Positions 5,672-49,946 of a DNA stretch of 64,000 nucleotides are shown one piece after another. A program made the translations under genes and the position numbers. The notes under the pieces are model-generated. The model did no database searches and had not been told where the DNA came from. It saw only the letters and a list, made by a program, of their open reading frames with translations. Origin of the DNA: Patescibacteria group bacterium (GTDB taxonomy: Bacteria; Patescibacteriota; UBA1384; DATEAH01); contig DATEAH010000006.1 of the NCBI GenBank assembly GCA_035288465.1, positions 27,770 through 91,769 on the forward strand, read 5' to 3'. Every line of letters starts with the position of its first letter. Positions within the stretch are counted from its first letter, which is position 1.

Positions 5672-5822
5672 AGCCCCCCTTGTGAGCTCCGATGCGATAT
5701 CGGAGCGAATTATGAATCATGAATCGCCTCCTCGGCGATCCACCGAAGAGGTGGATTGAGAATAATAGAATAATTAGAAATTAGACTAATTAGGTTAATT
5801 AGTTAATTCTGTCCTTATTTTA

Positions 5823-6761
5823 TCATCCCATCAAACCCAAGACAAGCAATTCCAAAGCAAAATCTGGATCAATTTGGCCAGTTTTCATGGCAATTTCCGC
5901 CGACATTAATTTTTGATAAATCAGTTTCAGATTTGATAAAGAAAAATTTCTAATCTGTTGCAAACTTTTTTGAATAACAAAAGGGTGCAATCTGGTTTTT
6001 TCGCGAATTTGGGCTGATCCCAAACCAGATTCGGATAAGGCCTTTATAATAATCAAATTTCGAAACTGGTACACAATCATGGTATGAATATATAAAGCAT
6101 TTTCGCCGGCGACGAGTAAATTTTTTAAAATTTGCTGGCTTTTGGCTAAATTTTTCGCGGCTAACGAATCAATAAGCTCAAAAATGCTGGGTGAAAATTG
6201 CGGTTTGACCAAGTCACGAACATCTTCCACGTGAATTTCTTTCCTATCTTTATATTCTATAAGTTTGTCAATTTCTAAATCTAAACGACCCAAATCATTG
6301 CCAACAAAAAAAGTTAAGGTTTCGGCGGCCTCAAAATCAATTTTGCCACCTTTTTCTTCGACTCTTTTTTTAGCCCAAGTCAAAATCCCTTGGCTTGCGA
6401 GAGGCTCAAATTGCCAGACTTTGCCAATTTCAGTGACTTTTTTAAGCACTGGATTTTTTGGGCTAAGTTCTGATTCAACAAAAACCACTGTCACTTCGGC
6501 TGGAATTTTGACAATAATTTTGGCAATTTCTTTGGCATCAGTTGGGCTGGCTTTCTTAAGGAAATTTTTCACGATGATGAGTTTTTGGGCTGATAAAAAA
6601 TTAGTAACGATAAGTGAGTTTTTAAATTGACTCAGGCTCATATTTTCGTCAAATTTTTCAATATTAAACTCAGAACCGGTTTTTTCGACAAATTTTGCTT
6701 GAACCTGGTTCATTTTTTCTAAAACGCGAAAATTGTCCTTACCATAGATTAAAAAAATCAT
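5823..6761 (-). CDS. holA: DNA polymerase III delta subunit
   Basis: N-terminus MIFLIYGKDNF, a size of 312 aa and a position overlapping the polA start by 4 nt fit HolA. Confidence 0.6.
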   Translation of the reverse strand: MIFLIYGKDNFRVLEKMNQVQAKFVEKTGSEFNIEKFDENMSLSQFKNSLIVTNFLSAQKLIIVKNFLKKASPTDAKEIAKIIVKIPAEVTVVFVESELSPKNPVLKKVTEIGKVWQFEPLASQGILTWAKKRVEEKGGKIDFEAAETLTFFVGNDLGRLDLEIDKLIEYKDRKEIHVEDVRDLVKPQFSPSIFELIDSLAAKNLAKSQQILKNLLVAGENALYIHTMIVYQFRNLIIIKALSESGLGSAQIREKTRLHPFVIQKSLQQIRNFSLSNLKLIYQKLMSAEIAMKTGQIDPDFALELLVLGLMG

Positions 6762-9505
6762 AATTTTATTTTTTTCAGTTCTTGCCAGTTGTCGCCAACC
6801 GAAATATCAACCTTGATTGGCACGTCTAATTTAAAAACATTTTCCATAATTTCGCGAATTTTAACCGCAGCACTGGCAACTTGGTCTTTGGGTACCTCAA
6901 AAACCAATTCATCATGAACCTGTAATAACATTTTTACTTTTGGCTCTTTAATTTTTGATTTTATTTTTATCATCGCCATTTTAATAATTTCCGCGGCTGT
7001 GCCTTGCGCCGGCATATTAATCGCCATTCTTTCGGCGGCTTTTTGAACTTGAGACATGCCTGAATGAATTTCTGGCAAATAGCGCTTATGACCTGATAGG
7101 GTTTCGACAAAACCGGTTTCGCGCGTCTCGGCAATCACTTCCTCAAGATATTTTTTAATGCCAGCAAAGGCTTGAAAATAGCGTTCAATAAAATTCGCGG
7201 CTTCTTTTTGGTTAATGCCCAAGCTTTGTGCTAAACCATAGGCGCTCATACCATATAAAACGCCAAAGTTGACGGTTTTGGCAACCCGTCGTTGTTGCGG
7301 AGTTACTTGATTTAAACCAACTCCAAAAATCTCCGCGGCGGTGGCAGCATGAAAATCTTCACCCTCTTTAAAAGCTTTGATGGCTTTTTGATCATCTGCC
7401 AATGACGCCATCACCCTTAATTCAATTTGGGAATAATCTGCGGAAACAATTTTATTGCCAAGACTAGCGATAAAGGCTTTGCGAATTTCCCGTCCCAACT
7501 CAGTTCGAATCGGGATATTTTGCAAATTTGGCTCAGAAGATGACAATCTGCCCGTGGCTGTAATGGTTTGATTAAAACTGGTATGCAGCCGACCAGTTTC
7601 GGGATTGATTAATTTTGGCAAGGCGTCTAGATAAGTATTTTTAAGTTTGGTCATTTCTCGATAATCGCGGATTAGGTCAATAATTTCGTGCTTGCCTTTG
7701 AGTTTTTCAAGTTCAGAGGCGGCCGTAGAATGACCAGTTTTGGTGCGCTTAACCTGAGTCAAAGGAATTTGTAATTTTTCGAACAAAATTTTTGAAAGCT
7801 GCTGGGTGGAACTAATATTAAATTCCTCACCGGCTAATTTCCAAATTTTAGCTTTAAGTTTTTCAATCTTCAAGCTAGTCTGGCGGGATAATTGCTTAAG
7901 GAATTTAGCATCAACCTTGATGCCGGCTAATTCTATTTCGGCTAAAACTTTAATTAAAGGCATTTCAATTTGATAAAAAAGCTGATCAAGTTTTTCTTCG
8001 CTAATTTTGGGCTTAAAAATATTGACCAATCTGAGCGTAATGTCAGCGTCTTCACCAGAATATTGGGCGATTTTGGCAGTTGGCACCTCGGTTAATGATT
8101 TTAAATTTTTACCTTTGCCGATCAAGTCTTCAATCGGAATCATTTCCACGCCTAATTCCGCAAAAGCGATTTGGTCTAAGTTGTGAGCGCGGGTGTGTGG
8201 ATTTAATAAATAGGACGCAATCATCGTATCAAAACTAAGCGGCGTCAATTCAATGCCATTTCTTTTTAAAACTAGATAATCATATTTTAGATTATGGCCG
8301 AATTTGGCAATTTTCGGATTTTCCAAGATTGGTTTGAGTTTTTTAAGCCAAGCTTGACCATGGTCGTTATCAACCGGAATATAAAAGGCTTTTTTTTCTT
8401 CAAAACTGACCGAGATTCCTAATAATTTGGAGGAGATTGCGTCAAGCCGGTCAGTTTCAGTGTCAATGACAATCCCTTTTTGCTGGGAAAGTTTTTGGCA
8501 GATTTGCTCAAATTGATCATTGGTTACTATTAAAAGATATTCAGCTTCAGTTTTGTGGATTGGGATATTTTTTGGGGTGGTTTTGGTTTTTTCAACGGCG
8601 GCCTCAAACAAGTTTGTTTGGCTGGTTTGTCTGGCGCCGGGAATTCTGGTCATTAAACTTCTAAATTCTAATTCTTGGAATAAATTGGCAATTCGGGTAC
8701 GGTCAAAATCGCCAAAAGCGCATTTTGCTAGTTGAATTTCTAGTGGTACATTTTGATCGATGGTGACTAGTTTTTTGGCTAATTCAGCCTGTTTTTCTGC
8801 GCCGGTTAAGAGCTTTTGGAGTTTAGGCGAAAGTTCGTCGAGGTTTTTGAAAATTTGTTCAATTGAGCCGTATTTTTCAATTAATTCCTGGCCGGTTTTT
8901 TCACCAATCCCCGCCACGCCTGGAATATTATCAGATTGATCGCCTCTCAAGGCTTTAAAATCGATCAGGCTCGTTGGTGGGAGCTGGTAGCGTTCTTGAA
9001 CTAAATCTTCATCATAAATGGCGGTATCAGTTAAACCGCGTTTCATGGTGTAAACTTTGGTTTTAGGGTTAACTAATTGCAAAGTATCAAGATCACCGGT
9101 AACAATAATAACTTCATCAACTAATTTTTGGGTCTTGGCTGCAAAAGTGCCAATAATATCGTCGGCTTCAAAACCAGCCTTTTCGATCACTGGCACACTA
9201 AAAGCTTCAATAATTTCTTTAATTTTGGGAATTTGATCGTATAATTCCTGAGGCGCGGCAACCCGTTTGGCTTTGTACTCTTTAAAAGCTTTATGCCTGA
9301 AAGTTGGTTTTTTAATATCAAAAGCCGTCACTAAAAAATCCGGTTTTAAGTCCCGAATCATATTCAAAAAAATCATGCAGAAACCATAAACCGCATTCAC
9401 CGGCTGACCAGATTTTGTGGTAAGATGCGGAATTGCATGAAAGGCGCGGTGCACAATCGCTGGCGCATCGACTAAAACTAATCTTTTTTTAGTTTTGGAC
9501 ATCAA
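6758..9505 (-). CDS. polA: DNA polymerase I
   Basis: A 915 aa protein with a 5'-3' exonuclease N-terminus (LVLVDAPAIVHRAFHA), a 3'-5' exonuclease region and polymerase motifs (DYSQIELR, KTVNFGVLYG, QVHDELVFE). Confidence 0.95.
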   Translation of the reverse strand: MMSKTKKRLVLVDAPAIVHRAFHAIPHLTTKSGQPVNAVYGFCMIFLNMIRDLKPDFLVTAFDIKKPTFRHKAFKEYKAKRVAAPQELYDQIPKIKEIIEAFSVPVIEKAGFEADDIIGTFAAKTQKLVDEVIIVTGDLDTLQLVNPKTKVYTMKRGLTDTAIYDEDLVQERYQLPPTSLIDFKALRGDQSDNIPGVAGIGEKTGQELIEKYGSIEQIFKNLDELSPKLQKLLTGAEKQAELAKKLVTIDQNVPLEIQLAKCAFGDFDRTRIANLFQELEFRSLMTRIPGARQTSQTNLFEAAVEKTKTTPKNIPIHKTEAEYLLIVTNDQFEQICQKLSQQKGIVIDTETDRLDAISSKLLGISVSFEEKKAFYIPVDNDHGQAWLKKLKPILENPKIAKFGHNLKYDYLVLKRNGIELTPLSFDTMIASYLLNPHTRAHNLDQIAFAELGVEMIPIEDLIGKGKNLKSLTEVPTAKIAQYSGEDADITLRLVNIFKPKISEEKLDQLFYQIEMPLIKVLAEIELAGIKVDAKFLKQLSRQTSLKIEKLKAKIWKLAGEEFNISSTQQLSKILFEKLQIPLTQVKRTKTGHSTAASELEKLKGKHEIIDLIRDYREMTKLKNTYLDALPKLINPETGRLHTSFNQTITATGRLSSSEPNLQNIPIRTELGREIRKAFIASLGNKIVSADYSQIELRVMASLADDQKAIKAFKEGEDFHAATAAEIFGVGLNQVTPQQRRVAKTVNFGVLYGMSAYGLAQSLGINQKEAANFIERYFQAFAGIKKYLEEVIAETRETGFVETLSGHKRYLPEIHSGMSQVQKAAERMAINMPAQGTAAEIIKMAMIKIKSKIKEPKVKMLLQVHDELVFEVPKDQVASAAVKIREIMENVFKLDVPIKVDISVGDNWQELKKIKL

Positions 9506-9510: not shown

Positions 9511-9660
9511 TGGAAAATTTCTAATTTCTAATTATTCTAATTTCTAAACAAATCCCAATGTTTAAATTCCCAATAACTAAATTCAGATATTTGAAATTGA
9601 GTAATTGGGTATTCATTAGGTCAATTAGAGTAATTAGGTTAATTGAACTAATTATACCTA
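9511..9660. repeat. AT-rich palindromic MITE-like intergenic repeat, copy R2
   Basis: Contains ctaatttctaaacaaatcccaat plus a taattaggttaatt sub-repeat that is also present at 5781..5810. It is the reverse complement of the ttgtttagaaattag arm seen at 27021, 31738 and 49905. Confidence 0.6.
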
Positions 9661-9723
9661 TTCTATTTTACCAAAAAAAGCCCGCTGAAGCGAGCCCATC
9701 ATCGATTTATTTAAAATTAAGGG

Positions 9724-13978: not shown

Positions 13979-16180
13979 ATGAATAAAGAATTGTCTAAAC
14001 AATACGAGCCGAAAAAAGTTGAGCCTGAAATTTATCAATATTGGGAAAAAGGCAAATTTTTTGAAGCTAATATTGATACCGGCAAAGAACCATTCTGCAT
14101 GATGATTCCGCCTCCAAACGTGACCGGTGAATTGCATATGGGTCATGCTTTAAACAATACGATTATTGACAGCTTGATTCGCTGGCAAAGGATGAAAGGC
14201 AAAAACGCTCTCTATCAGCCAGGTACTGATCATGCCGGCATTGCCACTCAAAACAAAGTTGAGCAAAAATTAGCCAAAGAAGGCAAAACCCGCTTGGATC
14301 TTGGCCGAAAAAATTTTGAGAAAGAGGTTTGGAACTGGAAAAACCAATACGAAAAAAGGATTTTGGGCCAGCTAAAAACTTTGGGCTGTTCGTGTGATTG
14401 GCAACGCAACCGCTTTACGATGGATGCCGAATATACTGAAGCGGTCATGACCGCCTTTAAACATTATTATGATAAGGGTTGGATTTATCAAGGTACGCGC
14501 GTAGTTAACTGGTGCCCGCGTTGCGCAACTTCAATTTCCGATATTGAGGTCAAACACAAACCGCAAAAAACTCTCTTATATTATTTTAAATATGATTTAA
14601 AATTTCCGATTACCATCGCCACCACCAGGCCAGAAACAAAACTTGGCGACACTGGCGTGGCAGTGCATCCCAAGGACAAGAGATATAAAAAATTTATTGG
14701 CAAAACTTTTCAAATTGATTTTGCCGGCCAAAAACGCGAGATCAAAGTGGTCGCCGATTCTTCGATTAATCGCAAATTTGGCACCGGGGCAGTGGGCTTG
14801 ACGCCAGCGCATTCAATAATTGATGAAAAAATCGCGGACAAAAATCACTTGGAAAAAATCAAGATAATTGATGAAAAAATTAGAATGACTGAAGCTGCTG
14901 GCAAGGATTTTGTCGGTTTGCGGCCAAAAGCAGCTCGCGAAAAAGTTGTCGCCTGGTTGCGCGATCAAAAATTAATATCAAGGGAAGTTGAAATCGAGCA
15001 TAATTTATCACTTTGTGATCGCTGTTCAACTACGGTTGAACCTTTGCCGTCTTTGCAATGGTTTTTAAAAATGTCGCAATTGGCTAAACCCGCCATTGAA
15101 GCTGTAAAAACGGGGAAAATTAAATTTCACCCCGCATTTTGGAAAAAAGTGTATTTGGCTTGGATGGAAAATATTGAAGATTGGTGCATTTCCAGACAGC
15201 TTTGGTGGGGACACAGATTGCCGGTATGGCACAAACAGGAAGAAATCCGAAATCCGAAATCCGAAATCCTAAACAAATCCCAATTTCAAAATTCCAAAAG
15301 TTTAGAAATTAGAAATTCGGATTTAGACATTTATGTTGGCGATAATCCGCCTGAAGGTTATGAACAAGTTGAAGATGTTTTAGACACTTGGTTTTCATCA
15401 GCCTTGTGGCCGTTTGCGGCTCTGGGTTGGCCGCAACCATCGCCGGTTTTTCAATATTATTTTCCCACCCAAATTTTGTCAACCGCCCGTGATATTATTT
15501 TCTTATGGGTGGCGAGAATGATTTTTTCCAGCTTGGAGTTAACTGGCGAGATTCCCTTTCGCGATGTTTATATCCATCCGACAATTTTTAATATTGAAGG
15601 CAGGCGCATGTCTAAATCTTTAGGCACTGGTGTTGATCCTTTGGAATTAATTAAAAAATACGGTGCAGATGCGGTTAGATTTGGTTTGCTCGCACAAAAT
15701 ACTGGGGTTCAGGATTTAAAATTTTCCGAAGACACCATCGCGGCTGGTGCAAAATTTGCGAACAAAATTTGGAATGCGGTCAGATTCGTGCGCATGAATT
15801 TGGAAATTTCCGACACCAAACTCCAAAAAATGGACAAAGCCCCAAAAGCGATTACTGACCACGATAAGAAGTTTCTCAACAACTTGAATAATATCATCAA
15901 ATCAACTGATAATAATTTGACGAATTTCCGCTTTGGCCAGACTGCCCAAGAATTATATAACTTTTTCTGGCATACTTTTTGCGATCAATATTTGGAATAT
16001 TCCAAAGAGCAGATGAAAGACGAAAAGCTCAAAAAAAATACCCAAAAAATTTTATATTACACCATTTGCCAAAGTTTGAAATTAATGCATCCGATTATGC
16101 CATTTATTACCGAAGAAATTTGGCGTGAACTCGGTCAAAAAACGCCATTGATAATTTCTGAGTGGCCGAAAAGTCAGTAA
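13979..16180 (+). CDS. valS: Valyl-tRNA synthetase (short form lacking the C-terminal coiled coil) with an in-frame repeat-derived insertion
   Basis: PPPNVTGELHMGHA (HIGH), DWCISRQLWWGHRLP, DTWFSSALWPF and GRRMSKSLG (KMSKS) identify the enzyme. A roughly 30 aa insertion lies between the WCISRQ and DTWFSS blocks. Confidence 0.9.
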   Translation: MNKELSKQYEPKKVEPEIYQYWEKGKFFEANIDTGKEPFCMMIPPPNVTGELHMGHALNNTIIDSLIRWQRMKGKNALYQPGTDHAGIATQNKVEQKLAKEGKTRLDLGRKNFEKEVWNWKNQYEKRILGQLKTLGCSCDWQRNRFTMDAEYTEAVMTAFKHYYDKGWIYQGTRVVNWCPRCATSISDIEVKHKPQKTLLYYFKYDLKFPITIATTRPETKLGDTGVAVHPKDKRYKKFIGKTFQIDFAGQKREIKVVADSSINRKFGTGAVGLTPAHSIIDEKIADKNHLEKIKIIDEKIRMTEAAGKDFVGLRPKAAREKVVAWLRDQKLISREVEIEHNLSLCDRCSTTVEPLPSLQWFLKMSQLAKPAIEAVKTGKIKFHPAFWKKVYLAWMENIEDWCISRQLWWGHRLPVWHKQEEIRNPKSEILNKSQFQNSKSLEIRNSDLDIYVGDNPPEGYEQVEDVLDTWFSSALWPFAALGWPQPSPVFQYYFPTQILSTARDIIFLWVARMIFSSLELTGEIPFRDVYIHPTIFNIEGRRMSKSLGTGVDPLELIKKYGADAVRFGLLAQNTGVQDLKFSEDTIAAGAKFANKIWNAVRFVRMNLEISDTKLQKMDKAPKAITDHDKKFLNNLNNIIKSTDNNLTNFRFGQTAQELYNFFWHTFCDQYLEYSKEQMKDEKLKKNTQKILYYTICQSLKLMHPIMPFITEEIWRELGQKTPLIISEWPKSQ
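15241..15330. repeat. MITE-like palindromic repeat copy R3, inserted in-frame inside valS
   Basis: The DNA agaaatccgaaatccgaaatccgaaatcctaaacaaatcccaatttcaaaattccaaaagtttagaaattagaaattcggatttag matches the intergenic copies at 9537, 27021, 31660 and 49830. It includes the same ctaaacaaatcccaat core and has inverted-repeat ends. It encodes EEIRNPKSEILNKSQFQNSKSLEIRNSDLDI. Confidence 0.65.
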
Positions 16181-16265
16181 ACGGTTAACAATCAACAGTT
16201 AATAACTCTGTGGTCCGAAATAGAGATTGGGGATTATGCCCGCCAAGTCTTAGAACTCACCTTTT

Positions 16266-16387
16266 CAGTATTACCGCGCCCGCCATTACTACGCTCAGGC
16301 GTTGCGGGCGGGTTCATACACGGTTCGTGCTGCGAATATCAGCGGGTTGCACACCAATTATATTAATTTTCTGGAGTGCAGGAGGGG
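16266..16387 (+). promoter_or_regulatory. Conserved structured leader element, copy B, upstream of the TPR gene
   Basis: It shares the same conserved blocks as 3309..3438 at about 85-90% identity. Intervening variable segments could each form their own hairpins. It ends ggagtgcaggagggg. Confidence 0.5.
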
Positions 16388-17314
16388 ATTTTGAAGAAAA
16401 AAATTTTAATAATTTTAGGCATTATTCTAGTTCTCGTGGGAATTTTTTTCGCGACTAAACCATACCGAACTAGTTTAGCTGCAACATATCTTAGTTTGGG
16501 TGATAAATTAATGGAAAACCAAGAATATCCGGAAGCGAAGACCCAATATTTAAAAGCGCGCTTGCTTTTACCTGGTAATTTTGGGGTGACTTTTAAAGTG
16601 GCCGAAACATATGAAAAATTGGGAAATTATCAATTATCCTATTCCTATTATAATAAAGCTAGGAAAATCTTACCAAATGACCCGAAAACATATTTAGCAA
16701 TGGCAAATATCAATTGGCGAAATAATAATTTAGACAAAGCGGTCGAGATTTTAAATAAAGGACTTGACAAAATTTCTAACAACAACGATCGCCAACTTTT
16801 ACAAATTAACCTGGGTAAAATTTATTTAATTAAAAAAGATTCCGCCAAAGCGAAAACTGCTTTTTCTGATACTGGTTCTAATTATTGGCTAGGAATTTAT
16901 TTCGCCTATCTCGGTGATTACCAAAGCGCTAAAAATTATTTTAGAAAAGAAACAACTGATAACGCCAAACTTTTTAACCAAGCGACAGTAAAAATTATTA
17001 ATACCAAAAGCGAGCCAACCCAAAAAGCGATTTTGGCCCAGATGCTAAATCAAACTGGTGAAGCCAGACTTGCGCTTCCAATTCTTAAAGATTTGGTTCA
17101 AAAAAATCCCGAATATCGGGATGCCTGGATATTTTTAGGTTATTCGAATTTAGAATTAGGAAATTCCAGTGAAGCCCTTGCTGCGCTCGAAACTGCCCAA
17201 AAATTAGACCCGATATATCCCCTAACATATGAACTCTTGGCCAAGCTCTACCAAAATAAAGGTAATGAGGCAAAAGCCAAAGAATATTTAGACCGCGCTA
17301 ACGCTCTCAAATAA
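16376..17314 (+). CDS. TPR-repeat protein with N-terminal transmembrane anchor
   Basis: An N-terminal TM (ILIILGIILVLVGIFF) followed by multiple TPR-like 34-aa repeats. The likely true start is the TTG at 16391 after the SD. Confidence 0.65.
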   Translation: MQEGILKKKILIILGIILVLVGIFFATKPYRTSLAATYLSLGDKLMENQEYPEAKTQYLKARLLLPGNFGVTFKVAETYEKLGNYQLSYSYYNKARKILPNDPKTYLAMANINWRNNNLDKAVEILNKGLDKISNNNDRQLLQINLGKIYLIKKDSAKAKTAFSDTGSNYWLGIYFAYLGDYQSAKNYFRKETTDNAKLFNQATVKIINTKSEPTQKAILAQMLNQTGEARLALPILKDLVQKNPEYRDAWIFLGYSNLELGNSSEALAALETAQKLDPIYPLTYELLAKLYQNKGNEAKAKEYLDRANALK

Positions 17315-19154: not shown

Positions 19155-19286
19155 CTTTTTAATTCAAGATTTATATTCTAATTTGACATTTTTAGTCAAT
19201 TTTATGGTATATTATAAATAGTAAAGAATCAAATTTGCTTAGCCTCGCGACGAGGATTATTTTGAGGTTATATATAAAATTCCAAA

Positions 19287-19673
19287 TTGCAACAACCGAT
19301 GACCAATCAAATTACAAATTCCAATCACCAAATAAAATTTGACTTAGAGGAACGTACCTCAAACTTCGGGAAAGAGATAATTAATTTTTCTAAGGGCATT
19401 AAAATAAATCCAATTAATAATCCAATAATTAACCAACTGGTAAGATCCGGAACAAGCGTTGGAGCAAATTATTGTGAAGCAAATGAATCAAATTCAAAAA
19501 GGGATTTTATCCATAAAATATCTATTGCCAAAAAGGAAGCTAAGGAAACCATGTATTGGCTTGGCCTGATAAGTAGTGCCGAACCAACCAAAGAAAATGA
19601 TGCAAAGCAGTTACGTAAGGAAGCTCACGAATTAGTCTTAATATTTTCATCAATAATTAAAAACAAGAAATAA
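19287..19673 (+). CDS. Four-helix-bundle protein (23S rRNA IVS protein / Avd-like family), paralog 1
   Basis: Motif QLVRSGTSVGANYCEANESNSKRDFIHKISIAKKEAKETMYWL matches the LxRSxxSIxANIxE...DF...E signature. It is paralogous to 25676..26050 and 28908..29273. Confidence 0.7.
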   Translation: MQQPMTNQITNSNHQIKFDLEERTSNFGKEIINFSKGIKINPINNPIINQLVRSGTSVGANYCEANESNSKRDFIHKISIAKKEAKETMYWLGLISSAEPTKENDAKQLRKEAHELVLIFSSIIKNKK

Positions 19674-19736
19674 ATTCGCACCTGAATATTGGACATTGAT
19701 TGGTGATTGAAATTTGATAATTGGAATTTATCCTAA

Positions 19737-26050: not shown

Positions 26051-26136
26051 TTTTGAATTTTAAACTGTCACTTTGATTTTTACATTTTGCAGTTTGAATT
26101 ATGGAAGTATAAACAACAATAACATAAAGAGGGGCA

Positions 26137-29345: not shown

Positions 29346-29349
29346 TACA

Positions 29350-30543: not shown

Positions 30544-30553
30544 AGGAGGAAGG

Positions 30554-31639
30554 ATGAATAAAAAAACCATTATTTATATAACACTTGGCGGAATATTATT
30601 AGTTTTGATAATCTTGGCTATAATTTTTTCTAAAAATCAAGGCTATAATAATTTATTAAGCAAAAAAGCCACGACTAACATAAATAGTGAAAAAATTTTA
30701 AACAGAAAAATTTCTTATCCCTCCTTATTGAAAGAAAAAAATAATATATTATTTTTAGACATTGTTGAAGAAAAGTTAGGTGTGATTAATTTAGAAACCA
30801 AAGATTCTGAATTTATTTCACCTGATTTAAAATTGTTTGAATCATTATATGATATTATTTGGTCCCCCGAAGCCAAACAAGTATTTTTTAAGATAATTTA
30901 TAATGATAGTTTTAATAAGTGGGGTGGCTTCTTCTGGGAATCTAAAATTAAAGAAGGGGAAAATACAATCTGGCATTTTGATCTAAATGAAAACAAACCA
31001 AAAATACTTCAAAACAATATTGTAGATTTACTATGGTTGTCTGAATCTCAAATTATGTATATTTATCAAGAAAATAATAAAAGCAAATCCTTGTATAAGA
31101 GTAACCCCCAACTTACCAACCAACAAAAATTGTTCAATTTGCCTAACGAGGCCTTTGAATTGTTAAATTATAATCGACAGACTAATATTTTATACTACTC
31201 CAGATCTATACAATCCATAGGGGGAGGTTTTGACATCTATAAACTCAATCTAAATACAGGAAAAGAAGAAAAAATTCTAGGCGGAATTAGGCAAATATTT
31301 ATTTCGCCTGATCAAAGATTTATTGTTTATGGTAAATATGAAGAAGATGACCAAACTTATTTACTTAAAGTAGATGGAAATCAAATCAATAAAATGGATT
31401 TTATCCCCAATGAATGTATTTTTTACATTAAAGATAATAAGCCCCATGCTCTTCTGTCAGGACTCAAAAAAAATGATCCTTTATTGGGAATGATAGATTT
31501 AAATGAGGGGAAAATAATAAAATATATTTATTCAAATAAAGATATAAAATTTTACGAAAATCTAATACTATCCCGTGACGGCAAAGCTTTGTATTTCACA
31601 TCAGATGATTATTTATATAAAATGGAAATAGCAGAATAA
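30554..31639 (+). CDS. Membrane-anchored hypothetical protein (Asn/Lys-rich, beta-rich)
   Basis: An N-terminal TM (IIYITLGGILLVLIILAIIF). No motif was recognised. Confidence 0.4.
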   Translation: MNKKTIIYITLGGILLVLIILAIIFSKNQGYNNLLSKKATTNINSEKILNRKISYPSLLKEKNNILFLDIVEEKLGVINLETKDSEFISPDLKLFESLYDIIWSPEAKQVFFKIIYNDSFNKWGGFFWESKIKEGENTIWHFDLNENKPKILQNNIVDLLWLSESQIMYIYQENNKSKSLYKSNPQLTNQQKLFNLPNEAFELLNYNRQTNILYYSRSIQSIGGGFDIYKLNLNTGKEEKILGGIRQIFISPDQRFIVYGKYEEDDQTYLLKVDGNQINKMDFIPNECIFYIKDNKPHALLSGLKKNDPLLGMIDLNEGKIIKYIYSNKDIKFYENLILSRDGKALYFTSDDYLYKMEIAE

Positions 31640-31640
31640 A

Positions 31641-31772
31641 AAATTCTAAATCCTGAATCCGAGATCCTAAACAAATTCTAATTTTCCAAATTACAAATTT
31701 CAAACAAGTTTGAGATTTAAAACATTGGAATTTAAATATTGTTTAGAAATTAGTGCTTAGGATTTCGAATTT
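31641..31772. repeat. MITE-like palindromic repeat copy R7 (most complete)
   Basis: Left arm gagatcctaaacaaattctaattttcc and right arm attgtttagaaattagtgcttaggatttcgaattt. It is followed by a ccugcc-UUCG-gcggg tetraloop hairpin (31774-31788) just 5' of the AAGGAGGGG SD. Confidence 0.6.
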
Positions 31773-31803
31773 ATCCTGCCTTCGGCGGGACTAAGGAGGG
31801 GTT

Positions 31804-33759: not shown

Positions 33760-33766
33760 GGGCAAA

Positions 33767-43213: not shown

Positions 43214-43351
43214 TTTTGTGCGGGACAAATCCTCTCTCCACCGCCAATTGGTGATATAATAAAAATAGTAAACAATTAATATTTATGCGTGTAATTTATT
43301 TATTGTTGGTCGTTATCTGCTAACCGTTAATTGATAAGCCCGCCTAAGTTT

Positions 43352-43450
43352 AGTGTTCGCCTTTTGGGAACTATTCGTTCACGGCTTACGCCGCACTTTA
43401 GCGACGGGCTGCACAACCTATTTGATAATAAATAATAGAGTGCAGGAGGG
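43352..43450 (+). promoter_or_regulatory. Conserved leader element, copy C (shorter and degenerate at the 5' side), upstream of pilB
   Basis: gggctgcacaacctattt, an AT-rich spacer, then agagtgcaggagggg immediately before the GTG start. The upstream gttcacgg...gccgcac block resembles the gttcatgcacg blocks of copies A and B. Confidence 0.4.
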
Positions 43451-45172
43451 GTGTTGGACTCAAAAAATCAAAACAATCAGTTGCCATATGATTCGGCTTC
43501 ATCGTCCCCAAAACCTGCACCCAAGGCTGGGCTTGAGCGGGTTTTTTCTGAATATATTAAAGATCAACAAGAAACCGCCACCGAAAATCGAGCTAAGAGT
43601 TTCGGCCTTTCCTATATTAACCTAATTGGTTATCCGATAAGCAATCAAACTATGCAATTAATTCCCGAAGAAATTGCCCAAAAATATCGAGTCGTCGCCT
43701 TTATGAAAGCTGAGGGGCAATTACGAGTCGCTTGCCAAGATCCAGAAAACGAACAGATGAAAATTGAATTAGCCCAAGTTGCGAAAAATTTAGACTTACA
43801 AATAATTTATACCTTGACTTCAAAAAATAGCCTAGATTATGCTTTAAAAAATTACCAATTTATTCCCAAACTCACGACGAGTGAAATTAAAGTTTCGCAG
43901 GCAGAGGAAAAAGATTTTGCCAAAGAGATTAAAAACCTTTCTGATTTGAAGGAAAAAATTAGCCAGGTGCCGATAACTAAGATTTTTGAAATTATATTAA
44001 CTGGAGCGATTAAATCTAAAGCTTCTGATGTTCATGTTGAGCCTGGGCAAAATGGCATGAAAATGCGTTACCGAATTGATGGAGTTTTGCAGGACGTGGT
44101 GAGTTTGCCTACCGAAGTTTATCGGGCTTTGTTATCTCGAGTAAAATATTTAGCCAAAATGAAGCTGGACATTAATAATAAACCGCAAAATGGCCGTTTT
44201 TCAATTACAGCCCTAGACGTGCCCATTGATTTAAGGGTTTCAACCTTGCCCACGATTTATGGCGAAAATGTGGTGATGAGACTTTTGGAGCACGGGAAAG
44301 GATTTTTGAGTTTGGAACAGCTTGATTTTTCCCCTGAAATTAAAAAGATGGTGGCTGAGGCGATTAAAAAACCATCAGGGATGATATTGAACACTGGGCC
44401 AACCGGTTCTGGCAAAACCACGACGCTTTATGCAATTTTAGAGACCTTGAATAAGCCCGGAGTAAAAATAATTACTTTGGAAGATCCGGTTGAATATCGT
44501 TTGCCGGGAATTAATCAGACTCAAGTGAATGTGGAGTTGGGCTTGGATTTTGCCAGCGGTTTGAAATCAGCTTTAAGGCAAGATCCAGACGTGCTGATGG
44601 TGGGTGAAATTCGCGATTTAGAAACCGCCGAAATCGCTTTGCAAGCGGCAATGACTGGACATTTGGTGCTATCAACCTTGCATACCAATAACGCGCCAAC
44701 CGCGATGCCTCGCTTGATTGATTTGGGCATTAAACCCTTTTTATTGCCCGGATCTGTGGATTTGGTAATGGCGCAGCGCTTGGTGAGAAAAATTTGTAAA
44801 AAATGCAAAGAAGAATATAAACCCACAGCTGAAGTAATGGAAAAGATTAAAAAAGCGCTCACAAGGATTAATCCGTCTCCTGTTAAGGCTGGAGCCGAGA
44901 CAGGTACAAAAATCCCCTCCAAACTTTTCAGGGGGAGGGGATGTCCTGTTTGCAATCAGACTGGTTATATGGGTAGAACGCCGATTGCCGAAGGCTTAAA
45001 ACCTAATGCAAAAATTGAAAAATTAGTGATTAATCGGGCGACCATATCAGAACTATATCGAACCGCAGTTGAATTAGGAATGGTTACTATGGAACAAGAC
45101 GGATTGCGAAAAGCTTTGGCGGGCGTAACTACAATTGAAGAAGTCTGGCGAGTTACCGCGAGTGAGACATAA
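43451..45172 (+). CDS. pilB: Type IV pilus assembly ATPase PilB (GspE family)
   Basis: Walker A GPTGSGKTTTLYA, GEIRDLETAEIALQAAMTGHLVLSTLHTNNA, and a tetracysteine motif CKKCKEE...CPVCNQTG. Confidence 0.9.
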   Translation: MLDSKNQNNQLPYDSASSSPKPAPKAGLERVFSEYIKDQQETATENRAKSFGLSYINLIGYPISNQTMQLIPEEIAQKYRVVAFMKAEGQLRVACQDPENEQMKIELAQVAKNLDLQIIYTLTSKNSLDYALKNYQFIPKLTTSEIKVSQAEEKDFAKEIKNLSDLKEKISQVPITKIFEIILTGAIKSKASDVHVEPGQNGMKMRYRIDGVLQDVVSLPTEVYRALLSRVKYLAKMKLDINNKPQNGRFSITALDVPIDLRVSTLPTIYGENVVMRLLEHGKGFLSLEQLDFSPEIKKMVAEAIKKPSGMILNTGPTGSGKTTTLYAILETLNKPGVKIITLEDPVEYRLPGINQTQVNVELGLDFASGLKSALRQDPDVLMVGEIRDLETAEIALQAAMTGHLVLSTLHTNNAPTAMPRLIDLGIKPFLLPGSVDLVMAQRLVRKICKKCKEEYKPTAEVMEKIKKALTRINPSPVKAGAETGTKIPSKLFRGRGCPVCNQTGYMGRTPIAEGLKPNAKIEKLVINRATISELYRTAVELGMVTMEQDGLRKALAGVTTIEEVWRVTASET

Positions 45173-46939: not shown

Positions 46940-48346
46940 TTATGGAGCGTCAGTTTCTTTATTGGCCCACAGGGTTTTGATATTTTCCACGGCCGCATCA
47001 ATGGCTTTTTGTGCAGGTTGTGATTTAGCAGTAACCGCGGTAATCATACTATTAAAAATTTGATCAATTTTATTTGGCGCCTGCCCCTTGTACCAGCTCT
47101 GGGCAGTAGAAATTTGGTTTTTAAACACTGAAATATCAACATCGCCAAGATACTCTGAAACCAAATCAAGCCTCGAGGTTGGCCGGCCAGTAATTTCTAG
47201 ATATTTATATTGAATCATATTATCTTTGTCGGTAGCAAATTTTAGAAAATCCCAAGCCACAACCGAATTTTGAGAATTTTTTGAAACCACATTTGGCCAA
47301 TAACTGGCATAATTTATTCTATTATCCGATCCTTTGACTTGTGGGATTGGTGCAAAATCATATTCTAAATCTGGGGCAGAATTTTTGATTTGTTTAATTT
47401 GATAGGAATAATTGATCATCATCGCGGTTTTATTAGCGATAAAAGCTTCAGTGGAAGTAGCTTGGGAAGCATTCCAAGAATATGTTTCTTTAGCGGGTTT
47501 GGCAAAACTGGTGTAAAAATCTAAAGCCGAGGTGCCAGGATAATAGATTTGGTCATTGCTTTTTTCAATTGATAAATTAAGGGTTGGGGTGTTTTTATCT
47601 TCAGAAACCATTTTGGTACCATTTTGGAGCATTAATAACGATAAAATATCTTGTGAAGCCTCAACATTATTTGAGGTACCTAAGGCAATGCCGGACTGGG
47701 CAATATTGGTACCATTTTTTGCGGTTAGTTTTTTAATTTGACCAATTAAATCTGTCCAATTTTCAGCCACCTTATCAATTCTTAATTTGTCGATTTGGTC
47801 TGAGGAAAGGTCTGCTTGTCGGCCCACAGAATAATTATAATTACCAATTAGGGTTTTATTGTAATATAAACCCAGAGTGTCGACATAAAAAGGAATCCCC
47901 CAAATTCGATTATCAGCAATTAAGTCTTGAGCTGCAACTGGCGCAAAGATTTTTTTGTAATCATCTGTAGACATATAATCTTCGGGCATGGGACTAAGTT
48001 TGTCTTCGTGTTTGGTCAGCCAATCATTTTTAATTTGGAATAAATCTGGACCTGAGCCGTTGGCAATAGCATTAATTAATTCGGTTTCATACCCTGAGGG
48101 ATTTTTTTTGACTAAATTAATAGTGGCATTGTCATGAGCTTGTTTATATGCCTGAACAGTTGGCGTGAGAGCAGCTTCGTCGTCGTATAAATACCACCAG
48201 GTTAGCGTGACTGGGCCTGAAGGGTAGGCGGTTTTTGAGGTGTTGGTAGGTTGGTCTGAGCCCTTTTTAAAAACAACCGCGACCACAATTAAAATCACGA
48301 TTAATAAAAAAATAATTATGCCGCCGATAATGAGTCCTTTTTTCAA
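46940..48346 (-). CDS. ABC transporter extracellular solute-binding protein (family 1, sugar-type), membrane-anchored
   Basis: TTG start, an N-terminal TM and a roughly 440 aa SBP-like domain. It is preceded on the minus strand by aaattatggagtgcaggaggggat (minimal copy D of the conserved leader 3' box, 48347-48368). Confidence 0.6.
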   Translation of the reverse strand: MKKGLIIGGIIIFLLIVILIVVAVVFKKGSDQPTNTSKTAYPSGPVTLTWWYLYDDEAALTPTVQAYKQAHDNATINLVKKNPSGYETELINAIANGSGPDLFQIKNDWLTKHEDKLSPMPEDYMSTDDYKKIFAPVAAQDLIADNRIWGIPFYVDTLGLYYNKTLIGNYNYSVGRQADLSSDQIDKLRIDKVAENWTDLIGQIKKLTAKNGTNIAQSGIALGTSNNVEASQDILSLLMLQNGTKMVSEDKNTPTLNLSIEKSNDQIYYPGTSALDFYTSFAKPAKETYSWNASQATSTEAFIANKTAMMINYSYQIKQIKNSAPDLEYDFAPIPQVKGSDNRINYASYWPNVVSKNSQNSVVAWDFLKFATDKDNMIQYKYLEITGRPTSRLDLVSEYLGDVDISVFKNQISTAQSWYKGQAPNKIDQIFNSMITAVTAKSQPAQKAIDAAVENIKTLWANKETDAP

Positions 48347-48368
48347 ATCCCCTCCTGCACTCCATAAT

Positions 48369-49250
48369 TTAATGTTTGTTAATTTTCAACCCTTTTAAAT
48401 AAGCGCGAAAATCACCATTAATTTCGGGTCGCATTAAAGCAAAATCAACCACCGCTTTAAGATATTCGGTTTTATTGCCAGTATCGTAATATTTGCCACC
48501 TTCAATTTCTTTGGCATATATTTTATGATTTGGTCGTAATTTGTTAATCGCATCCACCAGCCAAATTTCACCACCTTTGCCAGGTTTAAGCTCGCGCAAG
48601 GCTTGAAAAATGTCTGGAGTTAAGATATAGGCGCCGTGCACGGCTAAATCTGAAGGGGCTTTATCTGGTTCGGGTTTTTCGATAATTTCTTCAATCTCAT
48701 AAAATTTGTCTTCAACTTCATTAACTTTGCCAATCCCATATTTGGATAAATTCTCTCGATTTTTGATTTTTACGGCCGAAATGATGATGTCTTGATATTT
48801 TTCATAAGCTTCAATCATTTGTTTCAGGCGCGGCTTTTTAGCATAAATAAATTCATCACCCCATAAAACCGCAAATGGTTCATTGCCAATAATCGGCTCA
48901 GCATTTAAAATCGGCGTGCCATTGCCGTAAGGTCCTTTTTGTCGAATATAGATAAAATTGGCTAATCGTGCGATACGTCTAATTTCTTCTAATTGTTCGG
49001 TTTTGCCGGCTTTTTCTAAGCGGTTTTCTAATTCAATACTGTGATCAAAATGATCTTCGATTGCCCGTTTGCTGTAGCCAGTGACAATGACAATATCTTC
49101 AATTCCAGAGTTGACCGCTTCCTCAACTACATACTGAATAATCGGTTTGTCAACTACCGGCAACATTTCTTTGGGAGAGGCCTTGGTCATCGGTAAAAAT
49201 CTTGTGCCAAAACCTGCTGCCGGGATGACAGCTTTTCTAATTTTTTTCAT
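48369..49250 (-). CDS. galU: UTP--glucose-1-phosphate uridylyltransferase
   Basis: AVIPAAGFGTRFLPMTKASPKEMLPVVDKPIIQY. Confidence 0.85.
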   Translation of the reverse strand: MKKIRKAVIPAAGFGTRFLPMTKASPKEMLPVVDKPIIQYVVEEAVNSGIEDIVIVTGYSKRAIEDHFDHSIELENRLEKAGKTEQLEEIRRIARLANFIYIRQKGPYGNGTPILNAEPIIGNEPFAVLWGDEFIYAKKPRLKQMIEAYEKYQDIIISAVKIKNRENLSKYGIGKVNEVEDKFYEIEEIIEKPEPDKAPSDLAVHGAYILTPDIFQALRELKPGKGGEIWLVDAINKLRPNHKIYAKEIEGGKYYDTGNKTEYLKAVVDFALMRPEINGDFRAYLKGLKINKH

Positions 49251-49370: not shown

Positions 49371-49844
49371 TTATTCAGATTCGGTATCAACTTTAACAAT
49401 TTGGGTTTTACTTTTGGCTTCTTTGGGAACAATGATAGTTAAAACCCCATGTTTAAGAGTAGCTTTAGCTTTTTCTGGATCAACGCCGGTTGGTAAGGAA
49501 ACTTGTCTGGAAAATGTCCCCCAATAACATTCTTGAGCAAAATAATCTTCTGCTTTGACTTCAGCTTCTTGTTGTCGCGAACCTTTAACGGTGACGGTAT
49601 TATCAACGATGGAAACTTCTAAGTTTTCGGGTTTAACACCGGCAATAGGCGCCTTAATCACAATCGATTCCGCGGTTTGGTAAGCATCAAGCGCTAATTG
49701 GCCTTCGATTTCGGCCATCCACTCTTCTTTATTTTCAGGATTATCATCGGCTTTTTCACCGAAAATTTTAGAAACAGTTGGACTTTCTTTCGCCATCTTG
49801 CCCTCCTTTCCTGCCACAGCGGGAAAAATTGAAATCCTAAGCAC
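49371..49844 (-). CDS. Hsp20/alpha-crystallin small heat-shock protein
   Basis: ACD region ...VSLPTGVDPEKAKATLKHGVLTIIVPK at 157 aa. Confidence 0.85.
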   Translation of the reverse strand: MLRISIFPAVAGKEGKMAKESPTVSKIFGEKADDNPENKEEWMAEIEGQLALDAYQTAESIVIKAPIAGVKPENLEVSIVDNTVTVKGSRQQEAEVKAEDYFAQECYWGTFSRQVSLPTGVDPEKAKATLKHGVLTIIVPKEAKSKTQIVKVDTESE

Positions 49845-49946
49845 TAATTTCTAAACAAATCTTAAATCTCAATTTTCCAATTTTTTAAATATGTTTCTAA
49901 TTTCTAATTTGTTTAGGATTTAGAATTCCGATATTCGGATATTGTT
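49809..49946. repeat. MITE-like palindromic repeat copy R8
   Basis: Hairpin cctgcc-acag-cggg, then aaattgaaatcctaagcactaatttctaaacaaatc ... tctaatttgtttaggatttagaattcc plus the tccgatattcgga palindrome. It is the inverse complement of the R7 right arm. Confidence 0.6.

Follow-up and report, generated by a model that had tools for sequence, protein, structure and literature searches.

The AT-rich palindromic repeats in the window, by which we mean the whole 64,000-nt stretch of DNA analyzed, are a genuine dispersed family. Judged by their sequence, they are of the short, ORF-less type of rRNA intervening sequence (IVS) known from bacteria of the candidate phyla radiation (CPR). That the family equals, on sequence grounds, the short 16S and 23S inserts of related Patescibacteria is the main point of this analysis, and it had gone unseen in the original prediction. 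Of the copies in this Patescibacteria genome window, A, C, E and F are short and intergenic, B is translated as part of the essential valS gene, and G-IVP-D is a long form.

A dispersed family of heptad-periodic palindromes

Searches with nhmmer matched 11 arms in the window, two each in B, C, E and F and one each in A, D and G. Seven copies had been listed in the original prediction. Six were recovered with coordinates essentially as given, the weak copy at 5755-5815 was not, and the arm at 28867-28926 had been overlooked.

Copy A, 9512-9660, unstranded: canonical arm 9512-9575 plus a divergent right half of TAATTAG-type heptamers
Copy B, 15242-15333, plus strand: full element within valS (ORF 13979-16180), arms 15242-15303 and 15274-15333
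Copy C, 26962-27057, unstranded: full palindrome, arms 26962-27021 and 26994-27057
Long form G-IVP-D, 28867-29344, plus strand: left arm 28867-28926, ORF 28908-29273, inverted right arm 29282-29344
Copy E, 31640-31775, unstranded: full palindrome, arms 31640-31701 and 31712-31775
Copy F, 49822-49942, unstranded: full palindrome, arms 49822-49883 and 49893-49942
Candidate copy, membership not established, 5755-5815, unstranded: TAATTAG-type heptamers only

We take the family to be real because of leave-one-out HMMs, composition-matched nulls and heptad periodicity. When nucleotide HMMs were built with one element left out, each omitted element was found again, its better arm at an E-value between 4e-10 and 0.011; the exception at the level of single arms was the weak left arm of copy C, which was lost (E 0.72). 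The null consisted of two 640-kb Markov-1 backgrounds, one with the composition of the window and one with that of the elements themselves, and nothing in these 1.28 Mb of random sequence scored above 9.6 bits. The copies thus align better than AT-rich sequence of matched composition. The inverted-arm consensus proposed earlier proved correct when checked against 137 unique arms from many genomes, which give gAAATTCTAAATCCTAAtTTCTAAATyCTAAAC AAaTTCnA AAtTCCAAA. An arm consists of a 7-nt-periodic array, (C[TG]AAAT[CT])3-4, followed by CTAAACAAATTC..AAATTCCAAA. The self-identity of the elements at lag 7 is 0.53, compared with 0.326 ± 0.018 for shuffles, and all six heptad-phased runs of at least three C[TG]AA in the window lie within elements (0.13 expected). 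The descriptive part of the earlier MITE-like label is apt, as the family is dispersed, AT-rich, palindromic and non-autonomous. At 5755-5815 the model gives no match at E ≤ 10. The sole overlap of this segment with the family is an exact 14-mer, TAATTAGGTTAATT, that also occurs at 9631-9644 in the divergent right half of copy A, and its folding z-score is -0.74.

Copy A (nhmmer E 1.3e-9; E 5e-7 when left out) has the terminator of a minus-strand Mur-ligase gene (stop 9724) on one side and the start of polA (~9497-9505, minus strand) on the other; it is unchanged in L087, L088 and L092. Copy C (arms at E 6e-5 and 1.9e-10) occupies the spacer between ORF 26137-26916 and a VirB4/TraG-like gene (27085-28860). 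The whole spacer between ORF 30554-31639 and a PEGA-domain gene (TTG 31804) is filled by copy E (1.2e-11 and 1.7e-12). Copy F (3.8e-12 and 4.8e-9) lies in the spacer separating two divergent genes, hsp20 (minus strand, ATG 49797) and one for a ComF-like phosphoribosyltransferase (50036, plus strand). Across 52 nt, the left arm of F and the right arm of copy E are 85% complementary. Signs of mobility or population polymorphism were looked for in metagenome assemblies of the organism: copy E was identical in 10 of 10 and the long form in six of six, the valS insert was fixed, and no polymorphism was found.

Predicted folding was clearly more stable than that of shuffles only for C (z -5.1, with none of 200 shuffles equally stable), E (-4.76), F (-3.0) and A (-2.97). 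It was not clearly better than shuffles for copy B (z -1.5) or the half copies, of which 28867-28926 and 29282-29344 form the long form.

Relatives within rRNA genes

An HMM built from 18 arms embedded in 16S and 23S genes of other metagenomic contigs recovered 10 of the 11 window arms at E-values from 2.9e-12 to 4.6e-5 (copy A at 3.9e-8); nothing further in the window fell below E 0.5, and the 1.28-Mb background gave no match. By this sequence criterion, the repeats of the window are thus rRNA IVSs of the short type that has no ORF. The window-derived HMM in turn matches arms within Rfam-defined rRNA genes. Of the three full elements in the 23S gene of L208, one lies at about model position 583 and another takes the place of the loop at ~161-170; the 23S gene of L176 contains one. 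Two elements are present in the 16S gene of L229, one of them a 161-nt insert in the helix-6 loop, two in that of L210 and one in that of L156. These relatives are placed at helix tips of 16S and 23S. The window has no rRNA gene, hence no window copy lies inside one. Among the 128 elements counted in a census of 120 foreign loci, 100 (~80%) lie in intergenic spacers, 10 in coding sequence and 8 in rRNA, with another 10 at contig edges. At the flanks of rRNA copies, repeats of at least 8 nt were direct in three of nine and inverted in four of nine cases, compared with 1.6% in controls. No target-site duplication was found at the flanks of non-rRNA copies.

GC-rich hairpins at the junctions

All four GC-rich hairpins reported earlier are present, and their association with the repeats was borne out.

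GC hairpin ccgccagctggcgg, 26922-26935, plus strand: 27 nt upstream of copy C, predicted from the sequence
GC hairpin aagcccccatgggctt, 27058-27073, plus strand: predicted stem of -11.4 kcal/mol
GC hairpin cctgccttcggcggg, 31774-31788, plus strand: one U-G pair, predicted -10.6 kcal/mol
GC hairpin cctgccacagcggg, 49808-49821, plus strand: abuts copy F, predicted -8.6 kcal/mol

The hairpin at 27058-27073 directly separates copy C from an SD sequence (gaaggag) and the ATG at 27085, and that at 31774-31788 stands between copy E and the SD aaggagg. The one at 49808-49821 adjoins the hsp20 SD and resembles the hairpin beside copy E. None of the four is followed by a U run. The rRNA-embedded copies are flanked by a pair of similar GC hairpins. 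Outside rRNA, junction hairpins were not clearly enriched, with 10 of 68 flanks in the lowest control decile. The flanking hairpins are real but not universal.

In-frame copies in protein genes

Copy B (arms at E 8.7e-12 and 2.7e-9) is the top match of the rRNA-arm HMM, at E 2.9e-12. It is translated in frame and without stops as EEIRNPKSEILNKSQFQNSKSLEIRNSDL, and the heptamer at which a TAG would be in frame reads TTCG. The predicted peptide of the insert includes EEIRNPKSEILNK. Between the same anchors, relatives have 17 to 172 residues; other heptamers found at this valS site in relatives are (GATCAAA)4 in L001 and (AGTCAAA)n, the latter inferred from SQKSKVK peptides. Stop-free in-frame relatives occur elsewhere in lepA and in tsaD, pgk, carB and the genes for a CCA-adding enzyme and a 5'-3' exonuclease, the last five assignments being confirmed by Pfam. 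The inserts in valS, lepA and tsaD are at identical sites in different genomes, which either ancient vertical inheritance or repeated insertion could explain. In all seven coding full copies, six of them independent because L115 and L129 have identical sequences, folding is worse for the sense than for the antisense RNA, by a mean of +8.3 kcal/mol.

IVS-protein genes between inverted repeats

The ORF of the long form encodes a four-helix-bundle IVS protein (PF05635, E 1.9e-15; TIGR02436, E 2.4e-22; PDB 2rld, E 4e-13). The element lies between the VirB4-like gene and an SLT/M23 gene (ATG 29350). Its arms G and D match at E 4.6e-8 and 4.1e-8, and the inverted repeat 28886-28902/29307-29323 is 88% complementary. 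A PF05635/TIGR02436 gene with a plus arm on its left and a minus arm on its right was found here and at five foreign loci (L094, L132, L150, L194 and L201). This bracket is the classic architecture of ORF-carrying IVSs, yet it stands outside rRNA. The window has two further cassettes, whose arms belong to a different family.

Second IVS-protein cassette, 19277-19729, plus strand: ORF 19287-19673, TIGR02436 E 2.6e-24
Third IVS-protein cassette, 25654-26100, plus strand: ORF 25676-26050, TIGR02436 E 8.9e-22

The AT-rich inverted repeat of the second (19277-19317/19689-19729) spans 41 nt at 71% and includes a core of 18 nt at 89%; the inverted repeat of the third (25654-25703/26051-26100) spans 50 nt at 70%. 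Inverted repeats thus enclose all three IVS-protein genes of the window, and their ORFs are intact. No tracking of arm type by IVS-protein lineage was seen.

Discussion

Tsurumaki et al. (2024, PMC11270868) described short (<200 bp), unclassified inserts that occupy classical IVS sites in CPR rRNA genes, and found 23S_rRNA_IVP ORFs in 16S as well as 23S inserts. As characterized in the relevant parts of that paper, these inserts share with our elements the host group, the size class, the lack of an ORF, their distinctness from introns and the IVS sites, and the rRNA-embedded relatives in L156, L176, L208, L210 and L229 are the same kind. Those parts deal with rRNA inserts only and do not describe the heptad-palindrome consensus or the intergenic, in-ORF and free-standing IVP copies. 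Like the rRNA IVSs of Salmonella, Leptospira and Coxiella burnetii, with or without an S23p/23S_rRNA_IVP ORF, the present family forms a long stem from inverted ends, optionally has a PF05635 four-helix-bundle ORF in the loop and has members that interrupt 16S and 23S genes at helix tips. The Coxiella IVS also shares tandem heptamers beside its ORF: GACAGAT, two to three times, adjoins the S23p ORF on its upstream side, RNase III excises the IVS and the cleavage site is at the first repeat (PMC4990558). Unlike these IVSs, the window copies are in intergenic spacers and a protein gene, and the family is highly multicopy and dispersed, with intact ORFs. Rickettsia palindromic elements (Ogata et al. 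2000, 2002, as summarized in PMC10969869) are likewise palindromes of ~100-150 bp, found between genes and also, in frame, within unrelated housekeeping genes, whose products gain a peptide segment; neither a transposase nor a target-site duplication is evident. They differ in phylum and sequence, a far greater fraction of their copies is in genes, and they are not known as rRNA intervening sequences or as S23p carriers.

We consider it fairly likely that the repeats represent palindromic insertion elements of the rRNA IVS type, from an AT-rich, heptad-periodic family that is widespread in Patescibacteria, selfish and subject to RNase III cleavage. The element is probably selfish and, by analogy with characterized IVSs, its transcribed hairpin is probably cut by RNase III without religation. 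Such insertions would persist at places that the host tolerates. These may be sites where the transcribed AU-rich hairpin can be excised or cut harmlessly, namely rRNA helix tips and inter-cistron spacers, or sites where translation can run through the insert and yield a protein surface loop. The GC-rich junction hairpins would stay behind and cap the newly formed RNA ends; in an mRNA, the gene downstream would then have a 5' stem-loop immediately ahead of its SD.

A role in punctuation had been suggested in the original prediction. Intergenic copies would then be host-selected cis elements for the processing, stability or translation of the downstream mRNA; the AU-rich hairpin would provide the site of cleavage or standby, and its GC-rich neighbor would act as a 5' stabilizer beside the SD. 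Proximity to starts fits: copies end at most ~35 nt upstream of a start codon in five of seven window loci, and the order of arm, GC hairpin, SD and start recurs in C, E and F. Among foreign loci, 16 spacers are divergent and 6 convergent, single arms are more often in GTTTAG-sense orientation (22 vs 10), and the phage-like contig L124 has two near-identical arm-plus-hairpin modules whose hairpin, CUCCGNAGGAG, hides the SD. However, very short spacers in this genome make closeness to start codons expected, and the orthologous spacer between the Mur-ligase and 5'-3'-exonuclease genes in L095 is 89 nt without an arm match. Punctuation makes no sense for the same element inside rRNA and ORFs. Arm covariation is absent, arms of the same element being 0.655 alike and those of different elements 0.695, as is strand asymmetry, with no difference between sense and antisense folds among rRNA copies (5 of 9) and among co-directional ones (6 vs 6). 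No trace of selection at the RNA level was seen in the stem. A regulatory role is a possibility for the intergenic copies; as an account of the family we hold it to be unlikely.

We similarly doubt that the family is a classical MITE or an array bound by protein at the DNA level, in which CTAA every 7 bp would mark sites for a transposase, recombinase or nucleoid protein and the palindrome would be two inverted arrays. Every arm independently matches the common consensus without covarying with its partner, the arrangement is symmetric with both strands folding equally, and arms are strongly conserved even between genomes with a ValRS identity of 54-66%, as such a reading would have it. Correia elements (nemis) of Neisseria are co-transcribed, MITE-like repeats cut by RNase III. 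Together with ERIC, BOX and RUP, they are small non-autonomous inverted-repeat elements that are transcribed with their neighbors and fold into long hairpins, which may be processed and can change mRNA stability. Defined terminal inverted repeats and a TA duplication characterize Correia elements, whereas the present arms are heptad arrays, copies lie within rRNA and ORFs, and no target-site duplication was found. Its absence from the flanks of non-rRNA copies, together with the failure to identify any transposase gene adjoining copies, speaks against a classical MITE; the four-helix-bundle gene is the only recurrent cargo, and its lineages do not track arm type.

Local origin as heptanucleotide microsatellites, by slippage and palindrome formation without dispersal of an element, is already disfavored and appears very improbable. 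The differing heptamers at the valS site of relatives, the variation of heptamer number among Coxiella strains and the arbitrary tandem heptamers common in viral contigs would suit it, but a consensus of ~55 nt, including the non-repetitive core CTAAACAAATTC..AAATTCCAAA, is common to the 137 unique arms from over 100 unrelated loci and contexts. Chance likeness of low-complexity DNA, which the AT-rich, repetitive character of the elements and the segment at 5755-5815 might suggest, has a negligible probability and is refuted by the leave-one-out matches (E down to ~4e-10), the silent background and the recovery of window copies by the reciprocal rRNA-arm HMM.

A repeat family with heptad-periodic arms

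All seven copies of the AT-rich, palindromic repeat named by the original prediction were read directly, and the window was also examined by a general repeat search. Anchoring on the common core CTAAAC revealed eleven arms at seven loci (anchor positions in brackets):

9512-9660, copy A; plus-strand arm (9544)
15242-15333, copy B, inside valS; plus-strand arm (15269) and minus-strand arm (15300)
26962-27057, copy C; plus-strand arm (26983) and minus-strand arm (27023)
28867-28926, half copy G; plus-strand arm (28894)
29282-29344, half copy D; minus-strand arm (29310)
31640-31775, copy E; plus-strand arm (31667) and minus-strand arm (31741)
49822-49942, copy F; plus-strand arm (49851) and minus-strand arm (49911)

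The listing of copies was thus largely sustained. The arm at 28867-28926 had been missed, and the weak copy proposed at 5755-5815 gave no match to the arm model, its only tie to the family being a 14-mer that also occurs in copy A, within the aberrant right half.

An arm consists of three to four tandem heptamers C[TG]AAAT[CT], after which come CTAAACAAAT and a centre rich in A/T (cccaatttcaaaattccaaa). The periodicity is strong, with a self-identity at lag 7 of 0.53 compared to 0.326 ± 0.018 in shuffled sequences. The window has six heptad-phased C[TG]AA runs of three or more, compared to 0.13 expected, and all six lie within the elements. An nhmmer profile of the arms matched the arm sites and nothing else in the window. 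When each element was left out in turn, the better arm of every element was recovered with E values from 4e-10 to 0.011, and the weak left arm of copy C was the sole arm lost (E 0.72). Two 640-kb Markov-1 backgrounds, one with the composition of the window and one with that of the elements themselves, gave no match above 9.6 bits. Because of this recovery and the empty backgrounds, the copies are more alike than AT-rich sequence of the same composition, the comparison by which the prediction was to stand or fall.

A test for RNA structure had also been proposed, and structure was seen in part of the family. Copies C, E, A and F folded more stably than their shuffles (z of -5.1, -4.8, -3.0 and -3.0, respectively); no such difference was seen for the valS copy (z -1.5) or for either half copy. 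At the gathering threshold, Rfam found only two tRNAs across the window, and the elements matched no covariance model.

The same organism, with identical proteins, is present in many metagenome assemblies, and aquifer samples are among its sources (JGI 3300025164, 3300025313/14 and 3300025289; ENA ERZ272547xx-548xx). Copy E and the G-D long form described below were identical in every assembly of the organism in which they were compared (10 of 10 and 6 of 6, respectively), and no polymorphism in the presence of copies or the number of heptamers was found in this population. A single cluster of co-directional genes (25180-36466) contains copies C, G/D and E; it resembles a type IV secretion or conjugation-like module, with PrgI, a VirB4/TraG P-loop ATPase, SLT and M23 peptidase domains and a PEGA-domain protein.

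The family in other genomes and in rRNA genes

A metagenome scan with TCTAAATCYKAATTTCTAAW returned at least 120 loci. None of the 80 listed loci that were checked came from this organism, and their GC content ranged from 0.30 to 0.63. The 120 loci listed (731 kb) held 178 arms, which combine into 128 elements; 100 of these are intergenic, 10 lie in frame in ORFs, 8 are in rRNA genes and 10 are at contig edges. No copies were found in 80 ValRS loci from other species or in the 17 kb past the window ends. The absence from the ValRS loci says little, since the genomes concerned are mostly distant. By its ValRS relatives, the window is placed in Patescibacteria (the candidate phyla radiation, CPR), with 56-64% identity to the nearest species representatives and 66% to the nearest proteins in a large collection.

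The window contains no rRNA gene, and hence its own copies do not interrupt 16S or 23S rRNA at a helix tip as intervening sequences (IVSs) do. Other members of the family do so, with eight elements in Rfam-defined rRNA genes on contigs of other genomes:

L208, 23S rRNA gene; three full palindromes, one near model position 583 and another in place of the loop at about 161-170
L229, 16S rRNA gene; two elements, one of them inserting 161 nt into the helix-6 loop
L210; two elements, adjoining a group I intron
L156 and L176; one element each, in an rRNA gene

An HMM built solely from 18 rRNA-embedded arms recovered 10 of the 11 window arms with E values from 2.9e-12 to 4.6e-5. It gave no other window match below E 0.5, and the backgrounds were empty. 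The inverted arms and the folds of copies C, E, A and F likewise agree with the inverted-repeat ends and long stem of an IVS. The repeats in the window are therefore members of the family that forms short intervening sequences in the rRNA genes of Patescibacteria, a family that is also scattered through spacers and, in frame, through ORFs. Two more large inserts, which the arm model does not recognise, lie in the L208 23S gene (1-2272), measuring about 100 nt at model position 225 and about 247 nt at 277; the first 1280 model positions of this gene hold about 990 extra nucleotides in total.

Short unclassified inserts (<200 bp) at classical IVS sites, and 23S_rRNA_IVP ORFs in 16S as well as 23S inserts, have been described for CPR rRNA genes; the available portion of that study makes no mention of copies outside rRNA (PMC11270868). 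A literature search on Patescibacteria and palindromic elements found no paper. IVSs, CPR rRNA inserts and in-frame repeats like those of Rickettsia are each already known; as far as the literature was searched, their union in one dispersed family is undescribed.

The window HMM also recognised AT-rich palindromes with (AAATCCG)n arms in IMG/VR contigs (E 4e-7 to 8e-3), which are GC-rich (0.54-0.65):

L115, 3531-3673 (L129 carries the same sequence)
L121, 9821-9931
L124, 1194-1246 and 4700-4752
L125

The two modules of L124 are near-identical arms, each terminating in a CUCCGNAGGAG hairpin that conceals the SD. Directly upstream of an ATG, (AAATCCG)3-4 occurs in many other GC-rich viral contigs. 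No viral enrichment is claimed, since control heptamers were nearly as frequent: (GAAATCCK)3 had 25 matches, compared to 17 and 4 for two permuted or reversed controls. Nine viral stretches matched the pattern AAATCCKAAGCAC..TAAACAA. None of the nine had an arm match, and the one inspected was coding sequence.

A long form carrying an IVS-protein gene

Half copies G (plus) and D (minus) bracket an ORF at 28908-29273 that matches the IVS-protein (IVP) families PF05635 (E 1.9e-15) and TIGR02436 (E 2.4e-22) as well as PDB 2rld. Homologous genes are bracketed alike at five further loci (L094, L132, L150, L194 and L201), regardless of gene strand; the right-hand arm in L132 and L201 was seen as an exact minus-strand pattern match, with no HMM match. 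The family thus has a long form with an S23p/IVP gene in its loop, the same architecture as that of ORF-carrying IVSs. The Coxiella IVS similarly has tandem heptamers (GACAGAT, two to three times) near its S23p ORF (PMC4990558).

Two other TIGR02436/PF05635 four-helix-bundle genes in the window, at 19287-19673 and 25676-26050, are enclosed by AT-rich inverted repeats (19277-19729 and 25654-26100), each of a different sequence family. None of the three cassettes is in rRNA. Co-evolution of the IVS-protein lineage with arm type was not seen, as two subgroups with 41-46% mutual identity both have main-family arms.

Copies translated in frame

The placement of a copy inside valS was borne out. Copy B is translated straight through the valS ORF (13979-16180) as EEIRNPKSEILNKSQFQNSKSLEIRNSDL (residues 417-445 of ValRS) without a stop, and TTCG stands in the heptamer whose TAG would be in frame. 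The insert is fixed in the population, with all four cluster members at 730-733 aa. In ValRS relatives, 17 to 172 residues separate the conserved anchors LWWGH...DVLD, and several carry the same insert at the same site (P0015, EEILNPKSEILNKSQ...NLEIRNSDLE; P0017 and P0032, ...NLEIRNSDLE). The right arm TTAGAAATTAGAAATTCGGATTTAGA is nearly identical in nucleotides between the window and the contigs L093 and L094, although the ValRS proteins of all three share less than 60% identity.

Many relatives (P0002, P0009, P0016, P0018, P0043 and others) have different in-frame tandem heptamers at this site. In L001 (5138-5175), (GATCAAA)4 encodes EIKDQRSKIKN, and SQKSKVK-type peptides fit (AGTCAAA)n. 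The site may be a hotspot, an old insert under continual remodelling or a structural hairpin. The ValRS loop in L064 (10001-12328), P0007 and P0011 holds an insert of about 130 residues that resembles a folded domain (…IELRAGKPKDAEKYWGDF…) and is preceded by a heptamer-like KLKIKNQKTK stretch.

On contigs of relatives, the window HMM matched within tsaD, valS (twice) and a 5'-3' exonuclease gene (L095). Host ORFs by Pfam were class-I tRNA synthetase (twice), LepA/GTP_EFTU (twice), TsaD (twice), PGK, the large chain of carbamoyl-phosphate synthase (carB), PolyA_pol/HD of the CCA-adding type and the exonuclease; in several of them the insert breaks the domain into two parts. A peptide search with concatenated valS inserts gave only three weak matches, two of which were lepA fragments. 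The tsaD gene of L094 (1720-1900 and 2154-2195) has three in-frame inserts, namely a family arm, about 100 nt of GC-rich sequence and (GGAAATT)3.

The sense RNA was the less stable strand in all seven full coding copies, the mean difference being 8.3 kcal/mol; six of the seven are independent, as L129 repeats the sequence of L115. Only coding copies show this bias, which fits selection against mRNA structure.

GC-rich hairpins and the position of copies

The original prediction had several copies bounded by GC-rich hairpins, and some copies directly upstream of SD sequences. All four hairpins that it named are present, and copies C, E and F have the order arm, hairpin, SD and start codon. No T/U run follows any of the four hairpins or any right arm, and the hairpins are therefore not intrinsic terminators. 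Near copy A, the real terminator-like site lies outside the element, at 9676-9695 on the minus strand.

With strict stems, a hairpin was found in 13 of the 128 elements compared to 4.7 expected from random placement. By flank energy, enrichment was clear in rRNA copies only and weak elsewhere (10 of 68 flanks in the lowest control decile). These results indicate that the hairpins are real and associated with the family without being a constant part of the element, so that a universal terminal hairpin is rejected.

In rRNA, the AT palindrome is enclosed by a pair of GC hairpins that resemble each other, as if a host helix had been duplicated:

L229; ccttgtcc-ttcg-gacaagg ... cctcgtcc-ggag-ggcgagg
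L208; ccgctcaaaaatc-acaa-gatttttgagcgg ... ccgctcaaagctc-atga-gctttgagcgg

An rRNA copy in L210 has a 15-nt direct repeat on its flanks. In some coding copies (lepA in L152, carB in L155, valS in L093), the junction hairpin repeats the neighbouring host codons in inverted form.

In the first 80 foreign loci, intergenic elements were in co-directional (42), divergent (16) and convergent (6) spacers, and single arms were GTTTAG-sense in 22 cases and CTAAAC-sense in 10. By these counts the 5' side of genes is mildly favoured, which is compatible with either tolerance or a role in expression. The function as transcriptional or translational punctuation that had been suggested for the repeats is unproven.

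Comparison with known element classes

The family behaves as described for Rickettsia palindromic elements (RPEs). Those are palindromic repeats in frame in unrelated protein genes, as the present family is in valS in the window and in valS, lepA, tsaD, pgk, carB, the PolyA_pol/CCA-adding enzyme and the 5'-3' exonuclease in relatives. The likeness to RPE-1 to RPE-10 is one of behaviour only, and homology is unlikely because the host is a Patescibacteria bacterium.

The term MITE-like is acceptable as a description, since the short forms are small (90-150 nt), AT-rich and without coding capacity, with terminal inverted repeats; it fails on target-site duplication. The longest direct match between the flanks of non-rRNA copies averaged 5.15 nt compared to 4.87 nt in controls, and an 8-nt match occurred in 2 of 33 copies compared to 2.4% of controls. 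No transposase was seen beside any copy examined, the only recurrent cargo being the IVS-protein gene. REP/BIME elements are GC-rich imperfect palindromes of 20-40 bp with GTAG/CGTC heads and a RAYT transposase, whereas these elements are 90-150 nt, AT-rich and without such heads. PARCEL repeats are a different thing, as they are 25-residue tandem coding repeats of membrane proteins (PMC2996958).

The arms of one element were no more alike than those of different elements (0.655 vs 0.695 in an unbiased set). Compensatory evolution between the two arms is therefore absent, also once the bias of the search pattern is removed, and the palindrome consists of two arms each held to a consensus. Folds of the sense and antisense strands did not differ in rRNA copies (5 of 9) or co-directional copies (6 vs 6), and so G-U asymmetry gave no sign of RNA-level selection in either group.

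Possible mode of action and significance

To our knowledge, the origin, mobility and purpose of rRNA IVSs and of S23p/IVP proteins have been an open question since about 1990, and nearly all IVS studies known to us concern single inserts in rRNA. A multicopy lineage makes the question testable, as it offers many independent junctions, free-standing IVP cassettes and translated copies, and the conserved heptad motif could serve as bait when binding and cleavage are assayed. Patescibacteria have longer rRNA genes, essential proteins and spacers on account of these elements, which can lead gene callers, domain annotation, 16S surveys and assemblers astray.

By analogy with characterised IVSs, the transcribed hairpin would be cut by RNase III. 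The Coxiella IVS is cut by this enzyme at the first heptamer repeat, where GACAGAT stands two to three times upstream of the S23p ORF, and IVSs of both Coxiella and Salmonella are known to be excised by RNase III with no religation afterwards (PMC4990558). The junction hairpins may then cap the resulting RNA ends, and the elements themselves are probably selfish. A broader and, in our estimation, rather improbable proposal is that IVSs are not peculiar to rRNA and form a true superfamily of palindromic elements, mobile and able to settle in rRNA helices, in spacers between cistrons and in loops of proteins. In that case, the pentameric four-helix-bundle S23p/IVP protein encoded by the long forms would bind specifically to the heptad (CTAAATC)n arms, with a part in spread or processing, and insertion via hairpin intermediates would duplicate or invert the host flank. 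The twin GC hairpins around rRNA copies and the inverted host codons at lepA, carB and valS junctions would be possible traces of such insertion.

An unrelated leader repeat

A second, GC-richer repeat of about 125-170 nt, unrelated to the palindromes, forms a leader in the window:

3268-3440; leader copy
16225-16389; leader copy
43330-43453; leader copy
48338-48392, minus strand; 3' part only

The genes downstream encode signal peptidase I, a TPR protein, a PilB/T2SSE ATPase and a solute-binding protein. The leader had no Rfam match at the gathering threshold or at E<=1. The invariant GGAGTGCAGGAGGGG closes the leader, and pairing beside the SD is possible for an upstream GCTGCAC. RNAalifold predicted 41 pairs from three copies, 9 of them with compensatory double changes, and the leader may be an undescribed cis-regulatory element of envelope and secretion genes.
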